Virus record (IMG/VR): IMGVR_UViG_3300017824_001452 | Length of the DNA: 64,000 nucleotides | DNA from: a virus | Direction: 5' to 3' (one strand) | Shown: positions 9,989-47,555 of the stretch, piece after piece | How positions within the stretch are numbered: the first letter of the stretch is position 1 | Layout of the letters: the number at the start of each line of letters is the position of its first letter | Program-made: the position numbers and the translations under genes | Notes under the pieces: generated by a model | Seen by the model: the letters and a program-made list of their open reading frames with translations, nothing else | Told to the model about the DNA's origin: nothing | The model's database searches: none

Positions 9989-10411
9989 ATGGGATTAGGA
10001 ATTATTGATTCAGTTATAGGCGCCGCAGGGCCAATATTAGATAAGTTTATCGTAGACAAAGACAAGAAAGCAGAAATGGAACACGAACTTAAAATGGTGT
10101 TACATAATGCTAATCTCCAGCAAAATCAAATCAATTTAGAACAAGCAAAACATCCAAGTATTTTTGTAGCAGGAGCAAGACCTGCAATTATGTGGATATG
10201 TGCATTTGGTTTAGCATGGTCTTATGTCTTAGCACCAATTTTAAATTGGGGAGTTGTTATTAGTGGAGCACAAGTAACACTACCTGTTATTCAAACAGAA
10301 GGTTTGATGACACTTACATTATCTATGTTAGGTTTAGGTGGTATGCGTAGTTTTGAAAAAATGAATGGATTAGCCAGAGAAAATATGAAGGCTACTCCAC
10401 CAAAGCAATAG
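9989..10411 (+). CDS. Holin (GTA 3-TM holin family)
   Basis: 'ILDKFI.DKD.K', 'FVAGARPAIMW', 'LGLGGMRSFEK'; late promoter at 9955-9962. Confidence 0.85.
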   Translation: MGLGIIDSVIGAAGPILDKFIVDKDKKAEMEHELKMVLHNANLQQNQINLEQAKHPSIFVAGARPAIMWICAFGLAWSYVLAPILNWGVVISGAQVTLPVIQTEGLMTLTLSMLGLGGMRSFEKMNGLARENMKATPPKQ

Positions 10412-10462: not shown

Positions 10463-11026
10463 ATGGCTACATACGAAATTATTAATATAGGTGCGTTACC
10501 AAATGACGGTTCAGGTGATCCGTTAAGAGTTGCCTTTGATAAGATCAATAACAACTTTGCGAACCTATACTCTACTGCTGTTATATCATCTAATACATAC
10601 ACAACAGGTAATACAGCACAACAAGTCATTTGGGAATACCCAGCAAACGCATTTACATTGGGTTCATTTTTTATTAAAACAAACGACCCCGGCACAATTG
10701 ATCAACAAGATGTTAGATTAGATGCACAATTAAGTGCTAACTCAGCCAATATTAAATTTTCAGCATACTCATCTACACAGTGGGGAAATGTGTTAATAAG
10801 AGGCACCGGATATGATATGGATGTCAATGCTGGTAACGTTAGGATATTAGTTGATCCTGACCCAGCAAACGTATCTGGTTCACAAACACTATTTCATTTT
10901 ATTAATTCTTCAGTCATGTTCCAAGGAGAAGCACCAGCAGGATTGCCAATCGCACTTGATGGCTATGTAGATTCTGAACTTGCAACTGAAGTAGACGATA
11001 CAATTACAACTGAAGAAACACCATAA
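10463..11026 (+). CDS. Baseplate wedge/tail-associated protein (T4 gp9/gp10-like N-terminus)
   Basis: 'INIG..PNDGSGDPLRVAFDKINNNF..LY' motif; late promoter CATAAATA at 10432-10439. Confidence 0.75.
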   Translation: MATYEIINIGALPNDGSGDPLRVAFDKINNNFANLYSTAVISSNTYTTGNTAQQVIWEYPANAFTLGSFFIKTNDPGTIDQQDVRLDAQLSANSANIKFSAYSSTQWGNVLIRGTGYDMDVNAGNVRILVDPDPANVSGSQTLFHFINSSVMFQGEAPAGLPIALDGYVDSELATEVDDTITTEETP

Positions 11027-13690: not shown

Positions 13691-15253
13691 ATGAGCAACT
13701 TTAACGCAAGTGGTACGGGCGAATTAGTCAAGCCAGCATATAAGAAAACGGCATTTAAAAATCAAAAAGAAATTGATGATTTTGTAAAGTGTTGTGATCC
13801 TGATACTGGTTATCTATACTTTATGGATAACTTCTTTTATATTCAGCATCCAACGCAAGGTTCAATTCAATATCATCCTTATGAATACCAAGAACGTTTA
13901 ATCGACACTTATCATAATTATAGATATTCAATTGCTCTTATGCCTAGACAGTCAGGTAAGTCTACATCAGCCGCAGGTTACTTATTATGGTATGCTATGT
14001 TTGTACCTGATGCTACGATTCTAATCGCCGCACATAAGTACACAGGTTCACAAGAGATTATGCAACGTATCAGATATGCATATGAAAACTGTCCTACCCA
14101 TATCAAAGCAGGTGTTGTTACATACAACAAAGGATCGTTAGACTTTGAGAATGGCTCTCGTATTGTGTCAGCAACGACTACAGAGAATACGGGTCGTGGT
14201 ATGTCGATCACACTCTTGTATCTGGATGAGTTTGCATTCGTAAGACCTACAATTGCCGAACAGTTTTGGACTTCTATTACACCAACACTAGCAACAGGTG
14301 GTAAAGCAATCATCACATCTACTCCGAACTCTGATGAAGATCAGTTTGCATTGATTTGGAAACAAGCAAATAAAAATATAGATGCTAACGGAGAAGAAAC
14401 AGAACTAGGTGTTAATGGATTCAAACCTTTTAGATCATACTGGCATGAACAACCCGGACGTGATAATAAGTGGGCAGAAGAAATAAAAGCACAATTAGGA
14501 GACGACAGATTTGCACGTGAAATCGGTTGTGAATTCTTAATAGCAGATGAAACATTAATCAATCCTAATACATTAATCATGTTAGAATCAGTAGAACCTA
14601 CAAATAGAATGGGTCAAGTCAGATGGTTTCAAAAACCCAAGAAAGGCATGGTCTATTGTGTAGGGTTAGATCCGTCATTGGGTACAGGTGGAGATCCAGC
14701 CGCAATACAAATCTTTGAAGCAAACACAACAACACAAATCGGCGAATGGAAAGATAATAAAACAGATATTCCTCAGCAGATTAAATTGTTGGGGCAGATT
14801 ACACAATACATAGCAGAAGAAACAGGTGAACCAAACAACATATATTATTCACTTGAAAACAATTCGATAGGAGAAGCCGCATTGATCTCACTATCAGAAT
14901 ACGGAGAATCAAATATTCAAGGTATATTCTTAAGTGAGAAAGGTAAAAAACGTAGAGGATACAATACAACACACAAAGTTAAACTTGCCGCATGTGCTAA
15001 ATTCAAAACATTGATGGAAAGTAAAAAAATGAATGTAAAAAGCAAAGCATTAATTAGTGAGTTAAAAACATTCGTTGCATCTGGTGGTAGTTATCAAGCA
15101 AAGATTGGGGATAACGATGACTTAGTGATGGCTACATTGCTTGTAGTACGCATATTACAAGACATTACAGACTTTCACAGTGACTTAACTGAACATATGC
15201 GAGACCACGATGAGATGGTTGCACCCTTGCCGTTCTTTGCTGTGATTAACTAA
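13691..15253 (+). CDS. terL: Terminase large subunit (T4 gp17-like)
   Basis: 'YQ' adenine motif, Walker A PRQSGKS, Walker B LYLDEFAF, 'TSTP', nuclease 'GLDPS' and 'NDDLVMA'. Confidence 0.95.
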   Translation: MSNFNASGTGELVKPAYKKTAFKNQKEIDDFVKCCDPDTGYLYFMDNFFYIQHPTQGSIQYHPYEYQERLIDTYHNYRYSIALMPRQSGKSTSAAGYLLWYAMFVPDATILIAAHKYTGSQEIMQRIRYAYENCPTHIKAGVVTYNKGSLDFENGSRIVSATTTENTGRGMSITLLYLDEFAFVRPTIAEQFWTSITPTLATGGKAIITSTPNSDEDQFALIWKQANKNIDANGEETELGVNGFKPFRSYWHEQPGRDNKWAEEIKAQLGDDRFAREIGCEFLIADETLINPNTLIMLESVEPTNRMGQVRWFQKPKKGMVYCVGLDPSLGTGGDPAAIQIFEANTTTQIGEWKDNKTDIPQQIKLLGQITQYIAEETGEPNNIYYSLENNSIGEAALISLSEYGESNIQGIFLSEKGKKRRGYNTTHKVKLAACAKFKTLMESKKMNVKSKALISELKTFVASGGSYQAKIGDNDDLVMATLLVVRILQDITDFHSDLTEHMRDHDEMVAPLPFFAVIN

Positions 15254-15270
15254 AAGAGATAAATAATAGT

Positions 15271-18156
15271 ATGGCAATTGATCAGGAATCCTTTAATAAA
15301 CGACTCTACGATATCTTTAAGACTCGTGGATACAAACCAGCACCCAAAGACTCAAAAAATGAAAGAACAAATCCAGAAACAGCAGATGTTTTTGAGTTTC
15401 AATTTATTAAAGACGGTGAAAATTATGGTAAAGCATGGGCGACCATTGATAAAACATCATCGTTAAATATCTATTATGACGATAATCAAGCAGGTAGTCC
15501 TCCAGGACAAACTAATGGTGTTGAGTATGATGATTCATGGTCTGGATTGTTAAAACATTTAAAGCAATGGGCATTATCAAAACAACTAAACTTTGGATTA
15601 CATGACAGTGATCGTTTAGGTGACGATATGCGTCAAAGGGATTACTATAAAATGAAAGAAAAAATGAATGAAGGTTATCATGCTGTTAATAAAAGAACAT
15701 CATATAACGATAACATACCTAACGTAAAAGTTGTAATTCAGCATGATAGACAGATTGGTGAAGGAGAGCAACGTTGGAGAAACGTACACAAGATTTTTGT
15801 TGAAAATACTGAAGGTGAACGTTTTGCAGTCCCAACTAGAATGCCAGGTATTGCACGTGTATATGGTAGACATGTAGCAGAAGGTGGAACTCCATATGAC
15901 GACAGAGGTAAACACATCACTGCATTAGTAGAAGAATATACTAAAATGGCAGGCTTTGTACGTGCTACTCGTAGAGGAGAATTCAATGAATCTGTAGCAC
16001 AACTCATAGCAGAAGGTGTCAAACATCACAGATCATTAAAAGAAACACTGCAAAAGATGCAAAGTCATAGAGGATACAATCACTATTTTGAGTCATGGAC
16101 TCCTCCTCTTATGGAAGATGATGCTGATCATTCAAGCATTGCAGAAATGTTTTCGCATGAAAGCATCGATCCTAGAATTGAATCAGTATTGCCAATCTTA
16201 AACAAACTTAATAGTAACATCATTAATGAAATCGAAGAAGTTAACGAGTTAGATCAATGGGCAAAGTCTATTACTGAAATGGAACAGATAGACGAAGGAA
16301 AAAGAGACACACATTGTTCAGATAAGTGCTGTGGTGCAGACGTAAAAGCAGAGGACTGCACATGTTCACCAGACTGTCCACATTGCAACTGTAATGCAAA
16401 ATTAAAAGAAGAAAGTGAAAAGCCAGGTGGAATGGGTACTGAAGATGATGATTTAAGAGATGAAGAATCTGGTAAAAACCATGACCCTAAAACAGGCAAA
16501 AGAATCAAACCTCATCCGTTTGATCCAGACGATGATCATTTAAACGAAGGTAAGCATAATCAATTAGTCGTAGATGCTTTAGAAATGAGTGAAAAAGAAT
16601 TTGGTGAAAAACATCCTGCTGTAGCACATAGATATAATGATATTATAGCCGCATTTAGTGAAAAAGACTTAAAAAATAAACTAGAAAAACCTGTGCAACC
16701 TGAATTAGATTTATCTGAGAATACTGATTTCAGAACTTTAGTTAATTTAGACGTACAGAAAATACAACAAGCCTCTTCAAATGCAAAAGCATATGAAGAA
16801 GTAATCAAACAAAGAATTAGGGATCTTAAATTACAAATACCAAAAGAAAGTGATCCGGTAAAACGTAAAGAAATATCATCGCAAATCAGAGAATATGAAA
16901 AGTACAAAAATCAATATGATTTTACTAAAGCCAGTTCAGCAAAAAATGCAAAGGATGCCTCAAGAATTGAAGCAGATAGAATATTAAACAAGAAACCCGA
17001 TCCGTATACAAGACCAGCAGATAAAGTAACTATCGGTACTGCTTTAGCAGGACTGTTAGGTGAAGAGTCAGTTATTGATGAAAAAGATTTTTCAGATAAA
17101 GAAATTAAAATGGCATATGGCATTTTAAATGATCCTAGATATAAAGGTGGCAATCAAACTGGAGCAATCAAAGCAATTGAAGGCATTAAAGCAGGACTAT
17201 CTGAGCATCCAGGAGTTAAAAGAGCAATCTATAAAACACAAAACGAGCCTGATAATTTAGAAGAAGCAAACTTACCAATTGAAAAAATTAAAAGTCCAAT
17301 GACAGGTAAAGAAATCAAATACACAATATTAAATGGAGATGTATTTAACGAATATGGTGGCCCACTTAAATTTGATGATTACTTTGATATCATGGTCGCA
17401 CATAATTATCCTGCAGAAGGCCCTACAATTACTCAAATGTATAGTGATTATAAAGAAGAATACGGAGATATACCAATGAAAGGTTACAACCCAGGTCATC
17501 CTATCAAAGAAGAAGAAATAGGGCAACCCTTAGAAAGTAAAATAAAAAATAAAATACAAGAAATTATTGATGATATAAAACTTGCTAAAAAACAAAGAGC
17601 AGAAATAGAAAAAGACGAAAGGTATCAACAAGCAGATGACAATGAGAAATGGGATATGCTATGGGACGTTAATGGAACCGATACAAATATACAAGACATG
17701 GAAGATATATTAATTTTCTTCAAATCAGTATTAGCAGACCATCAGAAAAACGGCACAACACATTGGTGGCAGTCATTCAATCATGGTGATCACCTAGATA
17801 CTGCTGTTAGAGATCATATTGCATGGCAATTATCAAATATGGGTGCTTGGAAAGGTGATTTAAAAGAAGGCTTAGATGCTAATCAAAAACGTGCAGGACA
17901 ATTAGGACCTGTAGGTGGCCCTGCAAAAGTAGGTGACTTAGTTGGAGCCGAAAGTAAACATGCAGATGATGAAATGTCTATTCATCAAATGTCTGATGAA
18001 GATTTAGCAGACTATCTTAACGTAGATGTTAAGGATGTTAAAGCAGATAGAGAACATGCAGAAGAAGTTGCAAACGACAAATCACATGATCATGCACCTG
18101 ACAATATGTTAGAAGATATCTTACGTTTAAGTGGATATAGTAAATACCAGAAATAA
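15271..18156 (+). CDS. Large head/prohead-associated protein with mosaic C-terminal half
   Basis: Follows terminase under a late promoter; many (L/I)xE sites; Cys-rich insert; C-terminal 'LEDILRLSG'. Confidence 0.6.
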   Translation: MAIDQESFNKRLYDIFKTRGYKPAPKDSKNERTNPETADVFEFQFIKDGENYGKAWATIDKTSSLNIYYDDNQAGSPPGQTNGVEYDDSWSGLLKHLKQWALSKQLNFGLHDSDRLGDDMRQRDYYKMKEKMNEGYHAVNKRTSYNDNIPNVKVVIQHDRQIGEGEQRWRNVHKIFVENTEGERFAVPTRMPGIARVYGRHVAEGGTPYDDRGKHITALVEEYTKMAGFVRATRRGEFNESVAQLIAEGVKHHRSLKETLQKMQSHRGYNHYFESWTPPLMEDDADHSSIAEMFSHESIDPRIESVLPILNKLNSNIINEIEEVNELDQWAKSITEMEQIDEGKRDTHCSDKCCGADVKAEDCTCSPDCPHCNCNAKLKEESEKPGGMGTEDDDLRDEESGKNHDPKTGKRIKPHPFDPDDDHLNEGKHNQLVVDALEMSEKEFGEKHPAVAHRYNDIIAAFSEKDLKNKLEKPVQPELDLSENTDFRTLVNLDVQKIQQASSNAKAYEEVIKQRIRDLKLQIPKESDPVKRKEISSQIREYEKYKNQYDFTKASSAKNAKDASRIEADRILNKKPDPYTRPADKVTIGTALAGLLGEESVIDEKDFSDKEIKMAYGILNDPRYKGGNQTGAIKAIEGIKAGLSEHPGVKRAIYKTQNEPDNLEEANLPIEKIKSPMTGKEIKYTILNGDVFNEYGGPLKFDDYFDIMVAHNYPAEGPTITQMYSDYKEEYGDIPMKGYNPGHPIKEEEIGQPLESKIKNKIQEIIDDIKLAKKQRAEIEKDERYQQADDNEKWDMLWDVNGTDTNIQDMEDILIFFKSVLADHQKNGTTHWWQSFNHGDHLDTAVRDHIAWQLSNMGAWKGDLKEGLDANQKRAGQLGPVGGPAKVGDLVGAESKHADDEMSIHQMSDEDLADYLNVDVKDVKADREHAEEVANDKSHDHAPDNMLEDILRLSGYSKYQK

Positions 18157-18162
18157 TGATAA

Positions 18163-18312
18163 GTGGAAGCAATTTTCATAGGAATACTGATGATGCTACC
18201 GATGATCTGTGGTGGTTTTACCTTTGTAGTAAGTCAACAAGCAGTAGAGGGTAAATTCAATGGCGGACAAGAAAAAGAAACAGTCAAAGATTTATCTGAT
18301 ACCCGAAGGTGA
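18163..18312 (+). CDS. Possible small membrane protein (49 aa, GTG start, not in ORF track)
   Basis: VEAIFIGILMMLPMICGGFTFVVSQQ..., hydrophobic N-terminus; overlaps the rpmG start. Confidence 0.45.
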   Translation: MEAIFIGILMMLPMICGGFTFVVSQQAVEGKFNGGQEKETVKDLSDTRR

Positions 18313-18463
18313 AACTAGAGATCATCATACATATCATTACACTGCTATCAAAACAAAAAATTTAACCGTAAGCAATACTAAGTTAAAACTTAAGAAGTAC
18401 AATCCGGTTAAAAGAAAACATGAGTGGTTTGTAGAAGCAAAACTACCCCCTCATTCAAAATAA
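18260..18463 (+). CDS. rpmG: 50S ribosomal protein bL33 (Cys-free type)
   Basis: KIYL...TYHYT..K.K....KLKLKKYNPVKRKH..F.EAK matches bL33 (E. coli KIKL..GHFYTTTKNK...[21 protein letters not shown]). Confidence 0.85.
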   Translation: MADKKKKQSKIYLIPEGETRDHHTYHYTAIKTKNLTVSNTKLKLKKYNPVKRKHEWFVEAKLPPHSK

Positions 18464-19162: not shown

Positions 19163-19594
19163 TTATTCTACATCATTCAAAGGATTTTCTAAGATCGTTT
19201 GAATTCTTTCTTCTAAGTCTTTCCTCATCTCACGCATTTCTTTGTCTTGCTCTTTGAAACGTTCTTGCATCTCACGTTCCATCTCATAGACATCATCACG
19301 TACTTCACGTTGAGTTTTGGCAGTTTCACTTTCAACTCTACGTGCTAAACGAGCGGCTTCTGTGATTTCTCCTTGCAGATTATCTTTGATAACTTCTGTA
19401 AGTTCAGTCAATCTAATAATTTCTTGTTCGATTGTTTCTGGTTGTAATGCTTCTAGTTTTTCTTCTGCTTCAAGTAGTCTATTGTAGAGTTCAAAGCCTC
19501 CCCATAAACCACCAATTAATGTACCTAATAAGGGTAAAATGAATAGCAGTTTGCTACCACTCATCTTTATGCCTTCATACTCTACACTTGCCAT
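19163..19594 (-). CDS. Single-TM protein with C-terminal coiled coil
   Basis: LLFILPLLGTLIGGLWGGFELY hydrophobic helix followed by an E/R/K-rich heptad region; RBS aggag. Confidence 0.8.
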   Translation of the reverse strand: MASVEYEGIKMSGSKLLFILPLLGTLIGGLWGGFELYNRLLEAEEKLEALQPETIEQEIIRLTELTEVIKDNLQGEITEAARLARRVESETAKTQREVRDDVYEMEREMQERFKEQDKEMREMRKDLEERIQTILENPLNDVE

Positions 19595-19603
19595 ATTATA
19601 CTC

Positions 19604-20011
19604 CTATTGTTTACTGCTAAATGCTTTTCCTGCTTCAGCAATACCAAATGATCCTAATGTGACAACAACAAAAGACGTATAGATAAAGTCTGATATAACT
19701 AAATCAGTGCCGTCTAATCCTGTCACTAAGTCTACGATACCAAACGCAACCATCATAAAGAACGATGCAAATCCAATGATTGATTTCTCATTGATTTTGT
19801 TGTCGTCCATAAATAGATGACTAAATTTGAATTTTTCTTTTGGTTTCACTTCATGGGAAACTTTTCTTAAGTCCTGAGTTAATGCTTCCATCTCTCTGAT
19901 TTTGTCATTAGCCTCGTCTAGTTTTAGAAGTAGATCAGTATATTTGTCTAAATCTAAATTTTGAACGACTCCGTCGCCGCCCTCGATTTCGATGTTTTCT
20001 TTGTCACTCAT
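19604..20011 (-). CDS. Coiled-coil + two-TM membrane protein
   Basis: N-terminal coiled coil; 'INEKSIIGFASF..' and 'FVVVTLGSFGI' helices. Confidence 0.8.
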   Translation of the reverse strand: MSDKENIEIEGGDGVVQNLDLDKYTDLLLKLDEANDKIREMEALTQDLRKVSHEVKPKEKFKFSHLFMDDNKINEKSIIGFASFFMMVAFGIVDLVTGLDGTDLVISDFIYTSFVVVTLGSFGIAEAGKAFSSKQ

Positions 20012-22833
20012 TATTTTTCTCCTGTGTCTTCATCTGGGTTTATTCCATATTGCATAAGAACCATCTTATACAACTTGTCTTGTGTTTGCCCGGCCATACG
20101 ATAGAATCCCATCTTGTTATCATCTATCTTACCGTCAGGCATTTGTTTGCTGTCGTACCATTGATTTTCATTATTAGCATAAACTTGTACACCTGTATAT
20201 GCACTAAAGCCTGCTGTATAACCTATATAAGCAACAGCAACAGTTTGGTCTGCGTATCCGCCATCTTCAGTTGGTCCGCCTTCCTGAATACTTTGTAATT
20301 GCTCTTGTAAGTTTTGTGCGGCAACTTGCGAACCTACTTTGTCTGCTAGACTTTCAACTGCTTGGGTAGTACGTTGTTCTTGGACAGAATTCTGTACTTC
20401 AAACCGTTGAAAGTTTGGTGTTTGTTGACTTAAAAACTCAGTCAATCCTGTACCCGTTGATAATGCTTCAGTTAAATTGTCTCCAAAATCAGCATCGGCT
20501 TGAGTAACACCACTACCGTCGTCAAATGAGTCTATAAATAATGGTTCTTCTTGTAATTGTTCTTGTTGCTGTTCAGCAACTTGGAACGCAGAAGTTTGTA
20601 CGACATCTACAGATGTATTAGCCGCATCGATTGATGTATCAACTTGACCAGTAATCTGTTCAAATTGTTGTTGGCTAGAATCATCTGCAACACCGGTTGA
20701 CTCACTACCTGAGGAACCAGTGCTGTTAAAACTACCATCGTTTTGTTGCATTGCAATACTTTGTGATCCTGAATCAACTTGAACTGATTCAGCACTACCA
20801 TCAGATATTACATTTTCAATAACGTTAGCAGTTTGGGTATCATCAGAAACCTCAGTAAGAACCTGTGCAATAGCAACAGATTGAGATGCTGGTTTCTTAG
20901 ATGATGTTGAAGAACTGCTTTTAGCCTGTGAGGCTTCTTTTTCAACTTTAGCAATTTCTTCTTTAATTTCTTCTTTAATTTCTTCTTGTTCTTCAGCAAC
21001 GATGACTTCTTCGGCTTCTTCTATTACTTCAGTAAGTTCTTCAATAGAGTCTTCTGCTACTAATTCTTCTAATACGTCTTCACTGATTAATTCTGCTAAT
21101 GCCTCGTCTTCTTCTGCTAAAACGTTAAACACTTCTTCCGACTCTACAAATATAGGTTCTTCAGAAACTTCTTCACTTGCTACCCAAACTTCTTCTTCGG
21201 GTGCACCTGCTACATAAAGTTCATAATCAACTGTATTTTCTTCTTGTTGGTATACTGTTGTTTCAACTTCATATGTTTCAACTTCATATGTTTCTATTAA
21301 TGCGATTTCTTGTTCTGTTTGTTGCTGTTGAAATTCTTCAACAGGCATGTTCATTTCTACAATTGGATCAACATTAGAGACAGAGTTTATTACATCTATA
21401 TTAGTATTATCAACCTGAAATATTTCAACTCCTGAATCTATTAACGACTCTTCTCCTGATACTGCAATTGATTCAACCCCTGTTGTTGTAAACATGTTTT
21501 CTGTCATATCTTGTTCAGTATATGAGCCATCATCGGCACCACTGAAATCAGATTCAAAAGTTTCGTTACCGGTCATTGCTCCGTCGTCTGATCCGTCATT
21601 ACTTACAAAACCCAGGTCAGAGCCGTCATCACTATATCCAGTAGATCCATCATTAGTAAATTCACTATATTCGTCATCGTACCCGGTAGATCCATTTGAT
21701 GAAAAACTTCCTGTCGAAGAATCATACTCTGAACCAGATGATTCTGCTAATGCAGTTTGATAGTTAGGACATGAAGGATCACTTAAAGGATTAATATCAC
21801 ATTGATCTACTTCCGGCTCAGGCTCTATGTATCCAGGACATTGAGAATCATATTGAGCATCTAAATTACATTGTTGATCTAAGTATGCTTGTTCATAGCC
21901 AGAACACTCAGTACTGGATAATGGATCATTTGTACAAGGGTCAAGTAAAGATTGTCCATTATTGCCTTCATGGTAATATATGGCTCCGCCGCCCTCTAAG
22001 TATCCGCCGTCAAACTCGTCCCAGGTTGCATTCCCATTTGTCTCGTCATCATAAAATACATATTGAGTATAATTTGAATTATCTTTTTTCTCTCCAATTA
22101 AAACATCATGTTGTACAATATCTAATTCACCATAAGCAAATGTATAATTGTCAGGCATATTAACTTCTGCTCTTTCAGCATCAGTACAACGGTCTTCTCC
22201 GCATTTTGCTAAAGAGTCATTATAATCGTATATGTAAACTTCAAAACTATTATTAGAAGCCCTGTTATATTCCATTAAATTGTACCATCCTAATATAACG
22301 TAGTCATCAAATGTTTTGTATAATAATGCACTATCATTATTCATACCGATCATGTCAGTATAGAAAGGAAAAAGAACATCGTACCATCCCCATTGTCCTC
22401 CAGAAGTTGTGTTTAATTGATCTGGTGTCCAGTCTGAACAATATCTAGGCCCTTCATCTGCTTTAGTTAACATAAAACAACCATTAGTACTCATGTAACC
22501 ACCAGTAAATGAGTCGTTGTGCCACTCCCATGAAAAACCAAATTCTACTTTGGCAGGACATCCACCGTCATCCTGAAAATATCCACTGCTGTTGATATTA
22601 TTGAAATTCCAACAACCCTTAATACCTGTTTCTCCTGCGGCTTGTCTGTCATAAAGATTGTATAAATCTCCAAACGTATTACTAATTTCGTAAACCGTAT
22701 CGGTACCATCGGCATTCGTTTCTAGGGAGTATTGGTATTGGCCTGTCCCTGTTGTCCATGCAGTGCCGTTACCGGCTACTGCAAAGTTAGGTAATGTTAA
22801 TAGTAATAATATTAAGAGTTTAATTCGAACCAT
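20011..22833 (-). CDS. Secreted protein: signal peptide, NIDO-like domain, Cys repeats, acidic stalk
   Basis: MVRIKLLILLLLTLPNFAVA signal; 'FGFSWEWHNDSFTGGYMSTNG' NIDO-like; three C-x6-8-C-x2-Y repeats; long E/D/S/Q-rich region. Confidence 0.75.
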   Translation of the reverse strand: MVRIKLLILLLLTLPNFAVAGNGTAWTTGTGQYQYSLETNADGTDTVYEISNTFGDLYNLYDRQAAGETGIKGCWNFNNINSSGYFQDDGGCPAKVEFGFSWEWHNDSFTGGYMSTNGCFMLTKADEGPRYCSDWTPDQLNTTSGGQWGWYDVLFPFYTDMIGMNNDSALLYKTFDDYVILGWYNLMEYNRASNNSFEVYIYDYNDSLAKCGEDRCTDAERAEVNMPDNYTFAYGELDIVQHDVLIGEKKDNSNYTQYVFYDDETNGNATWDEFDGGYLEGGGAIYYHEGNNGQSLLDPCTNDPLSSTECSGYEQAYLDQQCNLDAQYDSQCPGYIEPEPEVDQCDINPLSDPSCPNYQTALAESSGSEYDSSTGSFSSNGSTGYDDEYSEFTNDGSTGYSDDGSDLGFVSNDGSDDGAMTGNETFESDFSGADDGSYTEQDMTENMFTTTGVESIAVSGEESLIDSGVEIFQVDNTNIDVINSVSNVDPIVEMNMPVEEFQQQQTEQEIALIETYEVETYEVETTVYQQEENTVDYELYVAGAPEEEVWVASEEVSEEPIFVESEEVFNVLAEEDEALAELISEDVLEELVAEDSIEELTEVIEEAEEVIVAEEQEEIKEEIKEEIAKVEKEASQAKSSSSTSSKKPASQSVAIAQVLTEVSDDTQTANVIENVISDGSAESVQVDSGSQSIAMQQNDGSFNSTGSSGSESTGVADDSSQQQFEQITGQVDTSIDAANTSVDVVQTSAFQVAEQQQEQLQEEPLFIDSFDDGSGVTQADADFGDNLTEALSTGTGLTEFLSQQTPNFQRFEVQNSVQEQRTTQAVESLADKVGSQVAAQNLQEQLQSIQEGGPTEDGGYADQTVAVAYIGYTAGFSAYTGVQVYANNENQWYDSKQMPDGKIDDNKMGFYRMAGQTQDKLYKMVLMQYGINPDEDTGEK

Positions 22834-24137
22834 TCTCTCTCACAAGTCCTACTAGATTTACGTCTTCCTTTAAAGTCAGGTCTAGTACATTTTTCGATGA
22901 AAGCGGCTTGATCAGCAGTCACATTAGAAATATTATCTTCTTCTATTTCATCATTGTTCGTAAATAAACCTAAAAACTTGTCTTTAGTAGTTGCACTTGA
23001 GTCAGGTCTTCTTCCTTCATTTTCTTCCCACTGCTCAGAAGCGGCTGGACCAATAGCACCCATATATGGACAAGGTGTACCTGCCATCTCCATTGCTCTA
23101 AACACTCTAGGATCCTGACACATTAATGATACTGCGGCTACTTTCATACCCATATCATATATTGTTTTAGATAGTTTGATCCTTTCACAGTTCATATCTC
23201 TAACAGACTTACCACCTGATATACCAAATACTTGCCCCTGAAACGCACCAGACACACCAGTTGTACATAAATCTTGTGAATAACTTGACCCTATGCTTGG
23301 TGCAATTGCACTAGCAGGTGGCGCCTTTGTAGTGATCTCTTGTTTGATAGTCTGATCAGTTTTGTTTATGTTGGTGTTATTGTTCGTGTTGGTGTTATTG
23401 TTTTCAGACTTGTTGTTAGTCGTAACATTGGACTCACTTGTACTAGTCGAAGTGTTGTTATTGTTATTGGTATTAGTATTATTTGAGGTCGTATTATTAT
23501 TGTTATTATTCGTATTGGTTGACGTAGAATTGCTGTTGCTATTTACGTTCTGGTTAATGTTAGAATTGTTATTGTTAGTATTCGTATTATTGGAAGTACT
23601 ATTCACCGTTGTATTATTGGTGTTGTTATTGGTATTAGTATTGGTATTGTTACTTGTAGTATTATTAGTATTGGTGTTTACATTCGTATTGGTATTGGTG
23701 TTGTTACTTGTGGTATTGTTGGTATTAGTATTGTTATTGGTGTTGGTATTGTTACTAGTACTGGTTGAAGTATTAGTATTCGTATTAGTATTCGTATTAT
23801 TATTGGTATTGTTATTGGTATTTGTTGATGTACTGGTTGAAGTATTAGTATTGGTATTGTTATTAGTGTTATTATTGGTGTTAGTATTGGTATTGGTGTT
23901 GGTATTAGTGTTGGTATTAGTGTTGGTGTTGGTGTTGGTATTGTTACTAGTACTGGTTGAAGTATTAGTATTCGTATTAGTGTTTGTATTGGTATTGGTT
24001 GATGTACTGGTTGTAGTTGATGCCGTACAATTCTCAGTACCGGCTGTACAAGTTCCAGTAGCCTGTGCAAAAATATTTGGGCTGGCAACCCCGACACTAA
24101 ATAAAATTAGTGCGATTTTCAATTGTCTCATATGCAT
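22812..24137 (-). CDS. Secreted Thr/Asn-repeat protein with Cys-rich C-terminal domain
   Basis: Likely start ATG 24137 or 24131 (RBS aaggga); signal peptide ..PNIFA; about 220-aa TN repeat; C-terminal 'APPASAIAPS..DLC..GVSG..NCERIKL..GMKVAAVSLMCQD..AGTPCP'. Confidence 0.8.
   Translation of the reverse strand: MHMRQLKIALILFSVGVASPNIFAQATGTCTAGTENCTASTTTSTSTNTNTNTNTNTNTSTSTSNNTNTNTNTNTNTNTNTNTNTNTNNNTNNNTNTNTSTSTSTNTNNNTNNNTNTNTNTNTSTSTSNNTNTNNNTNTNNTTSNNTNTNTNVNTNTNNTTSNNTNTNTNNNTNNTTVNSTSNNTNTNNNNSNINQNVNSNSNSTSTNTNNNNNNTTSNNTNTNNNNNTSTSTSESNVTTNNKSENNNTNTNNNTNINKTDQTIKQEITTKAPPASAIAPSIGSSYSQDLCTTGVSGAFQGQVFGISGGKSVRDMNCERIKLSKTIYDMGMKVAAVSLMCQDPRVFRAMEMAGTPCPYMGAIGPAASEQWEENEGRRPDSSATTKDKFLGLFTNNDEIEEDNISNVTADQAAFIEKCTRPDFKGRRKSSRTCEREWFELNS
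23362..24020. repeat. Low-complexity coding repeat (Thr-Asn)n with internal block duplications
   Basis: Imperfect hexamer array (gtattg/gtgttg/gtatta); block ttactagtactggttgaagtattagtattcgtattagt occurs near 23752 and 23944. Confidence 0.9.
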
Positions 24138-24176
24138 GGTATGTGATTCCCTTAATCGTAAGTTAGTTCGCACTAG

Positions 24177-24184
24177 TATTTATG
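24177..24184 (-). promoter_or_regulatory. T4-late-like promoter driving the minus-strand cassette
   Basis: CATAAATA on the minus strand about 40 nt upstream of the start of the TN-repeat gene. Confidence 0.6.
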
Positions 24185-24441: not shown

Positions 24442-25437
24442 ATGGCCAGTCTAGCAGACATCCGTGCCCGTCTCGCGGCACAAGAAAATAAATCATCTGG
24501 ATCTAAGTATCCAACATCTGATGGAGCGATCTATCCACATTGGAAAATGGACGAAGGAGCATCTTGCTCACTACGTTTCTTACCCGATGCGGATACTAAC
24601 AATTCGTTCTTTTGGATTGAGAGACAAGTTATTAAACTACCGTTTAATGGCGTGAAAGGTGATCCTAATGTGAGACAAGTAACAGTACAAGTACCGTGCG
24701 TAGAAATGTTCGGTGAAAATTGTCCTGTATTAGCAGAAGTTCGTCCTTGGTACAAAGACGAAACTCTTAAAGAAATGGCAAACAAATACTGGAAGAAAAG
24801 ATCATATATCTTTCAAGGTTTTGTTCGTCAAAATCCAATTGGGGAAGACAGCACCCCTGCGAATCCTATTCGTAGATTTGTTATTTCACCTCAAATCTTT
24901 CAAACTATCAAAAGTTCATTGATGGATCCTGAGATTGAAGAATTGCCAACTGATATGATGCGTGGTCTTGATTTTAATATCAGAAAGACTACAAAAGGTC
25001 AGTATGCTGATTATTCAACATCGTCATGGTCTAGGAAAGAATCTGCACTAACAGATGTAGAACAAGCGGCTATCGAAGCACACGGTCTATTTAATCTAGC
25101 AGACTTCTTACCTAAGAAGCCTTCAGAAGCAGAACTCAGAGTCATTAAAGAAATGTTCGAGGCATCAGTAGATGGTCGTCCATATGACACTGACAAGTTT
25201 GGAGCATACTATCGTCCTTTCGGTATCGATGCACCCGAGACTGCTAAAGTAGATGAATCAACTTCAAGTGCACCAGCACCCGCAGTTGAGACACCTGCCC
25301 CAGTCGCAGAACCAGTAGTAGAAACTGCACCAGCAGTAGAAACTCCTTCAGCGGCCCCAGCAGAAAGTTCTGAACCATCAAGTGATAAAGCACAAGACAT
25401 TCTAGCAATGATCCGTGCAAGACAAAACAATTCTTAA
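24442..25437 (+). CDS. Single-stranded DNA-binding protein (T4 gp32-like)
   Basis: 'LRFLPD', 'VPC.EM....CPV', 'G.DFNI.K..KG.YADYS.S.W'; directly upstream of the uvsX/uvsY genes. Confidence 0.85.
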   Translation: MASLADIRARLAAQENKSSGSKYPTSDGAIYPHWKMDEGASCSLRFLPDADTNNSFFWIERQVIKLPFNGVKGDPNVRQVTVQVPCVEMFGENCPVLAEVRPWYKDETLKEMANKYWKKRSYIFQGFVRQNPIGEDSTPANPIRRFVISPQIFQTIKSSLMDPEIEELPTDMMRGLDFNIRKTTKGQYADYSTSSWSRKESALTDVEQAAIEAHGLFNLADFLPKKPSEAELRVIKEMFEASVDGRPYDTDKFGAYYRPFGIDAPETAKVDESTSSAPAPAVETPAPVAEPVVETAPAVETPSAAPAESSEPSSDKAQDILAMIRARQNNS

Positions 25438-37291: not shown

Positions 37292-37550
37292 CGATAGAGT
37301 AGAAAGACAGAGACAAATGTTAGCGGCCGAAGAGTGGTCAAGAGGCGTAAAAGCAATACATGCACATTCATTTACTACTATGCATTACGAAACAAACCCA
37401 GATAGAACAGGTGATGATTTACGTGTATTAGATATAGAATATAATGACGGCACAGTAGAAAGAGAATACATAGTATCAGGTCGAAAAGAAATAATAGGAA
37501 CAAAACTTAAAGGTGAAATGTTATTGTTTGAGTATCAGAGGCACATCTAA
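37278..37550 (+). CDS. Hypothetical phage protein
   Basis: 90-aa ORF, RBS gaggag. Confidence 0.7.
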   Translation: MSQYDDRVERQRQMLAAEEWSRGVKAIHAHSFTTMHYETNPDRTGDDLRVLDIEYNDGTVEREYIVSGRKEIIGTKLKGEMLLFEYQRHI

Positions 37551-38104
37551 TGGAAGAATTGACACTAAACTTAATACCAGAAAACGATCCTAAATTAAAG
37601 GAACCTTGTGAGCCTTGGGACTTTAAACTCGACGGTGATCCAACTGAACTAATTAAAGCAATGACTAAAGTGATGTTTAATCCTAATCATCCTGGCATTG
37701 GTTTAGCCGCACCACAATGTGGCGTAATGAAAAATATATTAATCATGGGCACAGATGAAAAGTTAATGGCTTTTATTAATCCTCAAGTAGATGAACTTAG
37801 AGGAGAAAAAGAATTATTTTTAGAAGGGTGCTTAAGTTATCCTGATCTATGGTTGCATGTTCCAAGACAACCTGAATGCGTAGTCACCTATCAACAAATC
37901 GATGGTGAAGTCGTTAAAGAAAAACATCTTACTGGTATTCAAGCACGTGTATTTTTACATGAATATGATCACCTATTAGGTATCACGTTTGAAGAACGTG
38001 TACAAAGTAAACTTAGTTTAGAATTGGCTAGAAAACGCAGAGCAAAAAAGAAACGCCAAAGTGCTAAACTGGCTAGAAGACTTAAATTCCCTTCTGTTTC
38101 TTAG
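37550..38104 (+). CDS. def: Peptide deformylase
   Basis: All three PDF motifs: GIGLAAPQ, EGCLS, HEYDHL. Confidence 0.95.
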   Translation: MEELTLNLIPENDPKLKEPCEPWDFKLDGDPTELIKAMTKVMFNPNHPGIGLAAPQCGVMKNILIMGTDEKLMAFINPQVDELRGEKELFLEGCLSYPDLWLHVPRQPECVVTYQQIDGEVVKEKHLTGIQARVFLHEYDHLLGITFEERVQSKLSLELARKRRAKKKRQSAKLARRLKFPSVS

Positions 38105-47237: not shown

Positions 47238-47555
47238 ATGGAAGTTACAGACATTGCAAAAGATAAAATTAAAGCCCATTTAGAAAAACGCGGCAAAGGC
47301 GTTGGTATTCGTATAGGCATAGAAACTACAGGGTGTAGTGGATATGCTTACAAACTTGAATATGCAGATAATATTAACGAAGAAGATATTATCAATGAAT
47401 ATGATGGGTTTTCAATATTAATTGATCCTAAGGCTAACACTATACTTGAAGGAATCACAGTAGACTATCAAAAACAAGGATTAAATGAAGGTTTTGAATT
47501 TATTAATCCGTTAGAAAAGGCACGTTGTGGTTGTGGAGAGAGTTTTACGATTTGA
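47238..47555 (+). CDS. iscA: A-type Fe-S cluster carrier IscA (HesB family)
   Basis: 'GIRIGI.TTGCSGY.Y.L', 'DY...GL.EGF.F.NP', CGCGESF; likely start ATG 47238 (track start 47223). Confidence 0.92.
   Translation: MEVTDIAKDKIKAHLEKRGKGVGIRIGIETTGCSGYAYKLEYADNINEEDIINEYDGFSILIDPKANTILEGITVDYQKQGLNEGFEFINPLEKARCGCGESFTI

Follow-up and report, generated by a model that had tools for sequence, protein, structure and literature searches.

Two-component spanins such as lambda Rz/Rz1 (PHROGs 739 and 812) are among the closest described systems to the gene trio analyzed here, which we call A-B-D. They follow a late, envelope-spanning logic and are often encoded beside holin/endolysin genes. The trio resembles them in these respects, and its gene D shares their N-terminal transmembrane (TM) segment and coiled coil. 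However, the trio has neither a lipoprotein partner nor a spanin family match, it includes an additional large exported protein whose head is swappable, and it is often accompanied by canonical spanins. The unimolecular spanin T1 gp11 carries an N-terminal lipoylated cysteine and a C-terminal TM, whereas A has no lipobox and A of the present locus has no C-terminal TM.

Pelagiphages encode complete curli secretion modules (PMC9599517), and no clumping was seen with the curli-encoding phage Melnitz (PMC9004378). These type VIII modules (CsgG, CsgF, and CsgA/B) are, like the trio, marine multi-gene units that moved across phage families (PMC9599517, PMC9004378). Their pore, formed from hairpins of many subunits, may serve as a model for A, and in both systems an exported protein bears a polar, low-complexity tract. 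However, no Csg family or fold match was found for A, B, or D, the tract and the putative anchor of A form one polypeptide, and the trio includes an inner-membrane coiled-coil partner. CsgG (PF03783) had no match in the contig, which is approximately 25% complete, A had no CsgG match in Pfam and none among the fold-search matches listed, and no curlin Pfam match was obtained with the four proteins of the locus (A-D). By analogy, phage-encoded curli may be regarded as a precedent for structures on the surface of infected SAR11 cells, although the lack of clumping with Melnitz counts against display.

A third comparison is with OmpA/OprF proteins carrying PF00691 (OmpA_C). A homologue from Novosphingobium humi consists of the A domain, a proline linker, and the peptidoglycan-binding OmpA domain (E 1.5e-17), with the A domain located where the barrel would be. 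However, A has only two strands per chain, and phage A lacks OmpA_C. Proteins with the NIDO domain (PF06119) are a further comparison: only some phage groups use a NIDO-like head in B, and 8 of 61 aligned B heads matched the family (best E 1.5e-4). The same three families occur in the same order as A-B-D in the hypothetical proteins HTVC023P gp45/46/48, HTVC202P gp24-26, HTVC115P gp54/53/49, HTVC033P gp46-44, and Mosig 202-200 (A: PHROG 20531). These pelagiphage proteins differ by a shorter A tract and other B heads, and their records assign no function.

Locus, late promoter, and distribution

The stretch analyzed (the window, 64,000 nucleotides) comes from a linear virus record of 89.4 kb that belongs to a T4-like phage. 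Four genes are encoded on its minus strand: A (22812..24137, 441 aa), B (20011..22833, 940 aa), C (19604..20011, 135 aa), and D (19163..19594, 143 aa). A and B overlap by 22 nt, B and C overlap by 1 nt (TAATG), and C and D are separated by 9 nt. The four tightly coupled genes of the original prediction were all confirmed in place. A T4-type late promoter, CATAAATA (24177..24184, minus strand), is located 46 nt upstream of the ATG of A. In the whole contig, 24 of the 33 ATAAATA sites were located no more than 110 nt upstream of a start (chance expectation, 5.7%), and the starts preceded by this motif included sheath- and tube-like genes. The motif was also present upstream of A in 49 related loci, nearly all in three locus groups, while approximately 8 were expected. 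We regard the late promoter predicted before A as credible. RNA-library contigs from salt-marsh runs were identical to parts of A and B; such contigs are not able to reveal transcription or strand.

The genes on either side of the cassette are on the plus strand, and the GC skew reverses across 19-23 kb. The window also encodes a terminase (13691-15253) and gp32 (24442-25437), with UvsX and UvsY coming next. The inverted orientation emphasized previously was found in the window, but not as a general feature: the head-to-head position opposite gp32 is common only to close kin, and outside this group the trio is co-oriented with the neighboring genes. In three loci (L031, L114, and L115), D was on the opposite strand, facing B.

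The A-B-D order was kept in approximately 200 loci of unrelated phages. D was downstream of A in 201 of the 207 loci that had 4.2 kb or more of room, and the profile of the B C terminus matched in 178 of these. In 446 loci obtained with seven queries, a long gene followed A almost wherever room allowed, and 218 A-B-D triples with a D ending in NPL were collected; these locus counts are from the top matches of the seven queries and from profiles built from the same loci, and the samples are not independent. The trio was present in six cultured pelagiphages (HTVC115P, 202P, 023P, 033P, Baldr, and Mosig) and two roseophages (CRP-207 and CRP-810). Sixteen "genome" loci appeared to be phage contigs within MAGs. 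True cellular copies were rare, with 2 further copies in 400 genomes and 0 in 399 genomes.

C behaved differently. Its architecture was as proposed, a coiled coil followed by two TM segments (hydrophobic segments at 78 and 104), and it belongs to a family widespread in T4-like phages. However, only 14 of 80 C loci carried the trio, all of them close kin, and C was present in only 2 of the 446 loci; its slot is also used by other small genes. The concept of a four-gene system was abandoned: C forms a separate 2-TM phage family, most members of which are found without A, B, or D. The conserved unit is A-B-D, and C is a passenger. A lysis gene was nearby in 22 of the 80 C loci, and C is perhaps a small holin.

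Signal peptides were judged by a hydropathy rule (an N-terminal hydrophobic core). Such a core was found in 185/190 A, 188/205 B, and 200/202 D homologues, against 649 of 2,403 other ORFs (27%), which supports the signal peptides of A and B across their families. The hydrophobic segments of the window proteins are at residues 6 (A), 1 (B), and 16 (D). The central proposal of a conserved, envelope-targeted phage module under a late promoter survived, with A, B, and D homologues co-located in the same order across phage families. No published description of the trio was found in literature searches.

Architecture of A, B, and D

A consists of a signal peptide, an N/T/S tract (23352..24017, minus strand; aa 41-262, 94% N/T/S), a PPxAxAP linker, a hairpin closed by Cys291-Cys317 (23187..23267, minus strand), and a helical domain with Cys340-Cys356. 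The TN repeat and Cys-rich domain noted originally were both recovered. Among PHROGs, the A domain matched only PHROG 20531, and its homologues form 1,863 clusters at 50% identity. A had no Pfam, NCBIfam, or known-fold match and no match in a PDB sequence search. Fold searches with A returned a best Z of 2.9 and otherwise only uncharacterised viral clusters, which is not proof of a new fold.

The tract varies in length within the family (whole A, 147-528 aa). It is short, nearly absent, or replaced in many homologues, and G/S/N-rich tracts take its place in distant ones. In the standalone bacterial copies, the A domain always follows a small-polar tract, which suggests that the N/T repeat acts as a stalk or passenger of variable makeup. 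Ice binding or amyloid formation by the tract was not retained as a core function, since most homologues have a short tract or another sequence in its place.

In the AF2 model of A (pLDDT 68; hairpin approximately 53), a two-strand hairpin (E31-39/E44-52) is closed by invariant cysteines and followed by helices. Hydrophobic residues alternate with tiny polar residues along the hairpin, and the tip is hydrophobic. Residues 290-309 were almost uncharged across 140 homologues, with 12 of 1,235 positions charged in 65 distant ones. This pattern is as expected for a membrane-inserting hairpin, and we predict that it inserts into the outer membrane. However, the model is of middling quality, and its strands comprise 9 residues, which is short for a full membrane crossing; both points count against A as an anchor for display. 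A C-terminal TM was found in 93 of 190 A homologues, whereas A of the window has a charged tail instead. The GlyGly-CTERM sorting signal (NCBIfam) had no match in 10 tail-bearing homologues, the tails of which end in hydrophobic residues. What appears to be new here is a predicted core of an uncharged disulfide-closed beta-hairpin and helices, with a membrane tail in half of the homologues.

The OmpA peptidoglycan-binding domain acts in the periplasm. In the N. humi fusion, the C-terminal side of A would then be periplasmic, with the A domain standing in place of the OmpA barrel. Since each A chain has only two strands, a barrel role would require an oligomer. These features point to A as an outer-membrane anchor with a periplasmic C terminus. 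Standalone A was found in Comamonas, Burkholderia, Novosphingobium, and a few alphaproteobacteria (two of the latter among the loci L533 6734-7684; L534 4551-6047; L535 4419-5687; L537; and L538), and B and D were not found beside it in the three loci tested. Standalone A of Comamonas is labeled as a histidine kinase at NCBI, and no such domain was evident. In the roseophage CRP-810, gp53 is labeled as OmpA family; it is an A homologue without an OmpA domain. The CRP-810 genes with misleading labels, gp51 (a D homologue, see below) and gp53, are at L106 6165-6587 and 4779-5534.

B consists of a signal peptide, a beta-sandwich head, three short Cys repeats (300/310, 322/332, and 345/355), an acidic stalk, and a conserved C-terminal region of approximately 90 aa. 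The stalk (residues 366-800) contains 25% D/E and just 7 K/R. The Cys repeats and acidic stalk described originally were retained; the NIDO-like nature of the head was weakly supported, and B of the window had no Pfam match, with PF06119 below the threshold. Fold searches with the head returned general beta-sandwiches (best Z 5.2) and no clear fold. The head varies between phage groups, while the C-terminal region is kept: pelagiphage heads are of other beta-rich types, with a weak CBM_4_9 match, and B of freshwater phages has the Cys repeats alone. With its fixed base, long acidic stalk, and exchangeable head, B resembles a surface adhesin in plan, and an acidic stalk of more than 400 residues seems longer than a role in the periplasm would need. 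However, B of the roseophages CRP-207 and CRP-810 has a helical head without the beta-sandwich. Moreover, no usher, secretin, or other exporter for the 940-aa B was evident, and its crossing of the outer membrane is therefore unexplained. Both observations count against display.

D consists of an N-terminal TM (16-34), a coiled coil, and an invariant C-terminal NPL motif, in agreement with the predicted arrangement of one TM and a coiled coil. The conserved end suggests a docking motif. D had no match to Rz PHROG profiles at E 0.1. Prediction of a complex of the A domain with the C termini of D and B scored 0.00, with the fold of the partners uncertain, and speaks neither for nor against a complex. 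In a coevolution analysis of the 218 triples (effective number 91, too shallow), a few A-helix/D-tail pairs ranked high and were not trusted. CRP-207 gp73 (L105 3292-3873) and CRP-810 gp51 are called lysozyme in their records and are D homologues. Two small families (25 and 23 matches) recur beside B and D (L033 9699-10154; L105 3870-4226); one has an AAI-x-AA helix start and a TM end, and the other has EF-hand-like repeats and two TM segments.

Proposed surface display and competing explanations

Among the three roles proposed originally (lysis, shielding of the cell surface, and aggregation), surface display for aggregation or shielding now fits best. The reading that we consider most likely, with a probability of approximately 45%, is that A-B-D is a phage-built trans-envelope anchor by which an infected Gram-negative cell displays B at a late stage of infection. 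The late promoter, recognized by its motif, would drive transcription of A-B-(C)-D. Sec would export A and B, and D would remain in the inner membrane, its coiled coil extending into the periplasm, a topology consistent with the hydropathy of the families. The uncharged hairpins of several A chains may then enter the outer membrane and together form an oligomeric barrel or anchor, with the helical domain and C terminus facing the periplasm. A would be tied inward by its own membrane tail, by the NPL end of D, or, in the bacterial homologue, by the OmpA domain. B would dock through its conserved C terminus and project its swappable head on the acidic stalk, and the N/T tract of A may also pass outward. 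By analogy with phage-encoded curli, the doomed cell might be stuck to neighboring hosts or particles before the burst, or be shielded.

In 33 of 48 loci of one phage group, three further exported genes, E, F, and G, were inserted between B and D. E resembles fimbrial subunits in its terminal strand pattern and its end-to-end cysteines, a likeness in sequence pattern only, and we take it to be pilin-like. F is a small beta (Ig-like) protein, and G is another Cys-closed hairpin with a coiled coil. None of the three had a Pfam, NCBIfam, or PDB-sequence match, and homology between A and G was not detectable (probability 0.2%). G has at least 4,694 relatives, and G of Vibrio aquimaris is also fused to OmpA. 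Similar sets without A-B-D were found in phages of Vibrio and Erwinia, and on plasmids of Vibrio and Mesorhizobium, where EAL genes adjoin them. The E-F-G loci L395 4706-6031, L447 5282-7369, L448 4534-5885, L449 3526-4788, and L451 3169-4306 represent marine phages, cultured Vibrio and Erwinia phages, and bacterial plasmids. No usher-sized gene was present in the inspected E-F-G loci, and an usher-less pilus is possible. The entry of a module resembling a surface fiber into the operon favors a display role. A bolder form of this proposal is that A founds a new class of outer-membrane anchors or pores, oligomeric and with two strands per chain, and that A-B-D, with the optional usher-less pilin module, performs a display through which viruses that rank among the most abundant in the ocean stick infected cells to the next host; we consider this doubtful.

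The trio is very common (A alone, 1,863 clusters) in ocean viruses, including cultured phages of the most abundant marine bacterium. Its presence in cultured SAR11 phages makes it experimentally testable now. No pelagiphage virion proteome was found in literature searches. Display of adhesins, if true, would give phages a means of raising host encounters or of aggregating cells in dilute seawater, which would affect infection rates and carbon export.

An aid to lysis is unlikely, but deserves consideration. D would act as an i-spanin-like protein, the hairpin of A would be a fusion loop or outer-membrane grip, and the complex would pull the membranes together after peptidoglycan removal. The i-spanin architecture of D and the late promoter are consistent with this role, and A with a hairpin and a C-terminal TM recalls one-piece spanin topology. 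Also in its favor, 74 of 144 long loci had lysis genes close to the trio, with 9/10 and 9/12 in two small-phage groups. Against it, such genes were nearby in only 2/32 loci of one large-phage group. The expectation that genomes with the cassette lack Rz/Rz1 was contradicted. Rz/Rz1 pairs were found in 37 trio loci, often straight downstream of D; the genes that immediately follow D in L020 and L026 matched Rz (phrog_739, E 1e-11) and Rz1 (phrog_812, E 1e-13 to 1e-15). Adjacent o-spanins, where present, have their own Rz partner, and Rz1 was located elsewhere in two near-complete trio genomes of 170 and 166 kb (G001 and G002). Spanin replacement as a general role was therefore discarded. Searches for Rz/Rz1 in the window's own, approximately 25% complete contig were blank. 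No match was obtained to phrog_739 in five pelagiphage isolates or to phrog_812 in two, which leaves replacement in some hosts conceivable. The trio has no lipoprotein, with a lipobox in only 1/190 A, 2/205 B, and 0/202 D. A variable adhesin-like head on a long stalk has no obvious purpose in fusion, and standalone A in bacterial chromosomes also argues against this role. A lysis role, if true, would bear on how the outer membrane is breached by phages with no recognizable spanins. Under either role, A seems to represent a type of outer-membrane protein not described before, and some bacteria carry it by itself.

We attach a low likelihood to an envelope tether or lysis timer, in which A, in the manner of OmpA, Lpp, and Pal, connects the outer membrane with either the wall or the inner membrane, while B and D brace or sense the periplasm and the cell stays intact until the progeny are complete. 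The OmpA_C fusion, the membrane tails in half of the A family, the coexisting spanins, the close holin/endolysin genes, and the late timing are in accordance with this reading. However, the swappable B head and the inserted pilin-like module would be left unexplained, and no match to a known antiholin or tether family was found. Envelope targeting and a variable head also characterize exclusion proteins such as Cor or Imm. However, exclusion genes are usually early or lysogenic, whereas the trio has a late promoter and is located with lysis and structural genes, and superinfection exclusion or receptor masking in the periplasm or outer membrane appears improbable. That the three are ordinary virion parts (fiber or decoration proteins) is very improbable: the late promoter, the structural genes adjoining the trio in several podoviruses, and weak fold-search rows to a phage tail fiber entry (E 0.0096) are outweighed by the N-terminal hydrophobic cores (A, 97%; B, 92%; D, 99%; other ORFs, 27%), by the presence of the same trio in both myo- and podo-type phages, and by the bacterial standalone homologues.

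Other genes in and near the window

A GTA-type 3TM holin (9989-10411, plus strand; PF11351, E 7.7e-14) is encoded under a late motif, and an M15-like endolysin is located outside the window at approximately 78272-78796 in window numbering. A 961-aa protein of no known family (15271-18156, plus strand; 886 to 1,093 aa in kin) comes right after the terminase and has a late motif. A ribosomal protein L33-like gene (18260-18463, plus strand; PF00471, E 9.5e-5, 23.1 bits, just below the cut-off) is conserved beside the cassette in kin. Late-region genes at 11026, 18473, 42108, 43352, 46057, and 46800 start with similar M-R/K-x-x-E/D motifs, reminiscent of T4 capsid-targeting leaders. By motif, the genes at 37550-38104 and 47238-47555 (both plus strand) are presumably peptide deformylase-like and IscA/HesB-like, respectively. 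The window also encodes a TonB-dependent receptor-like phage gene (29991-31583, plus strand; Plug domain, E 8.7e-9), with the late promoter CATAAATA 11 nt upstream.
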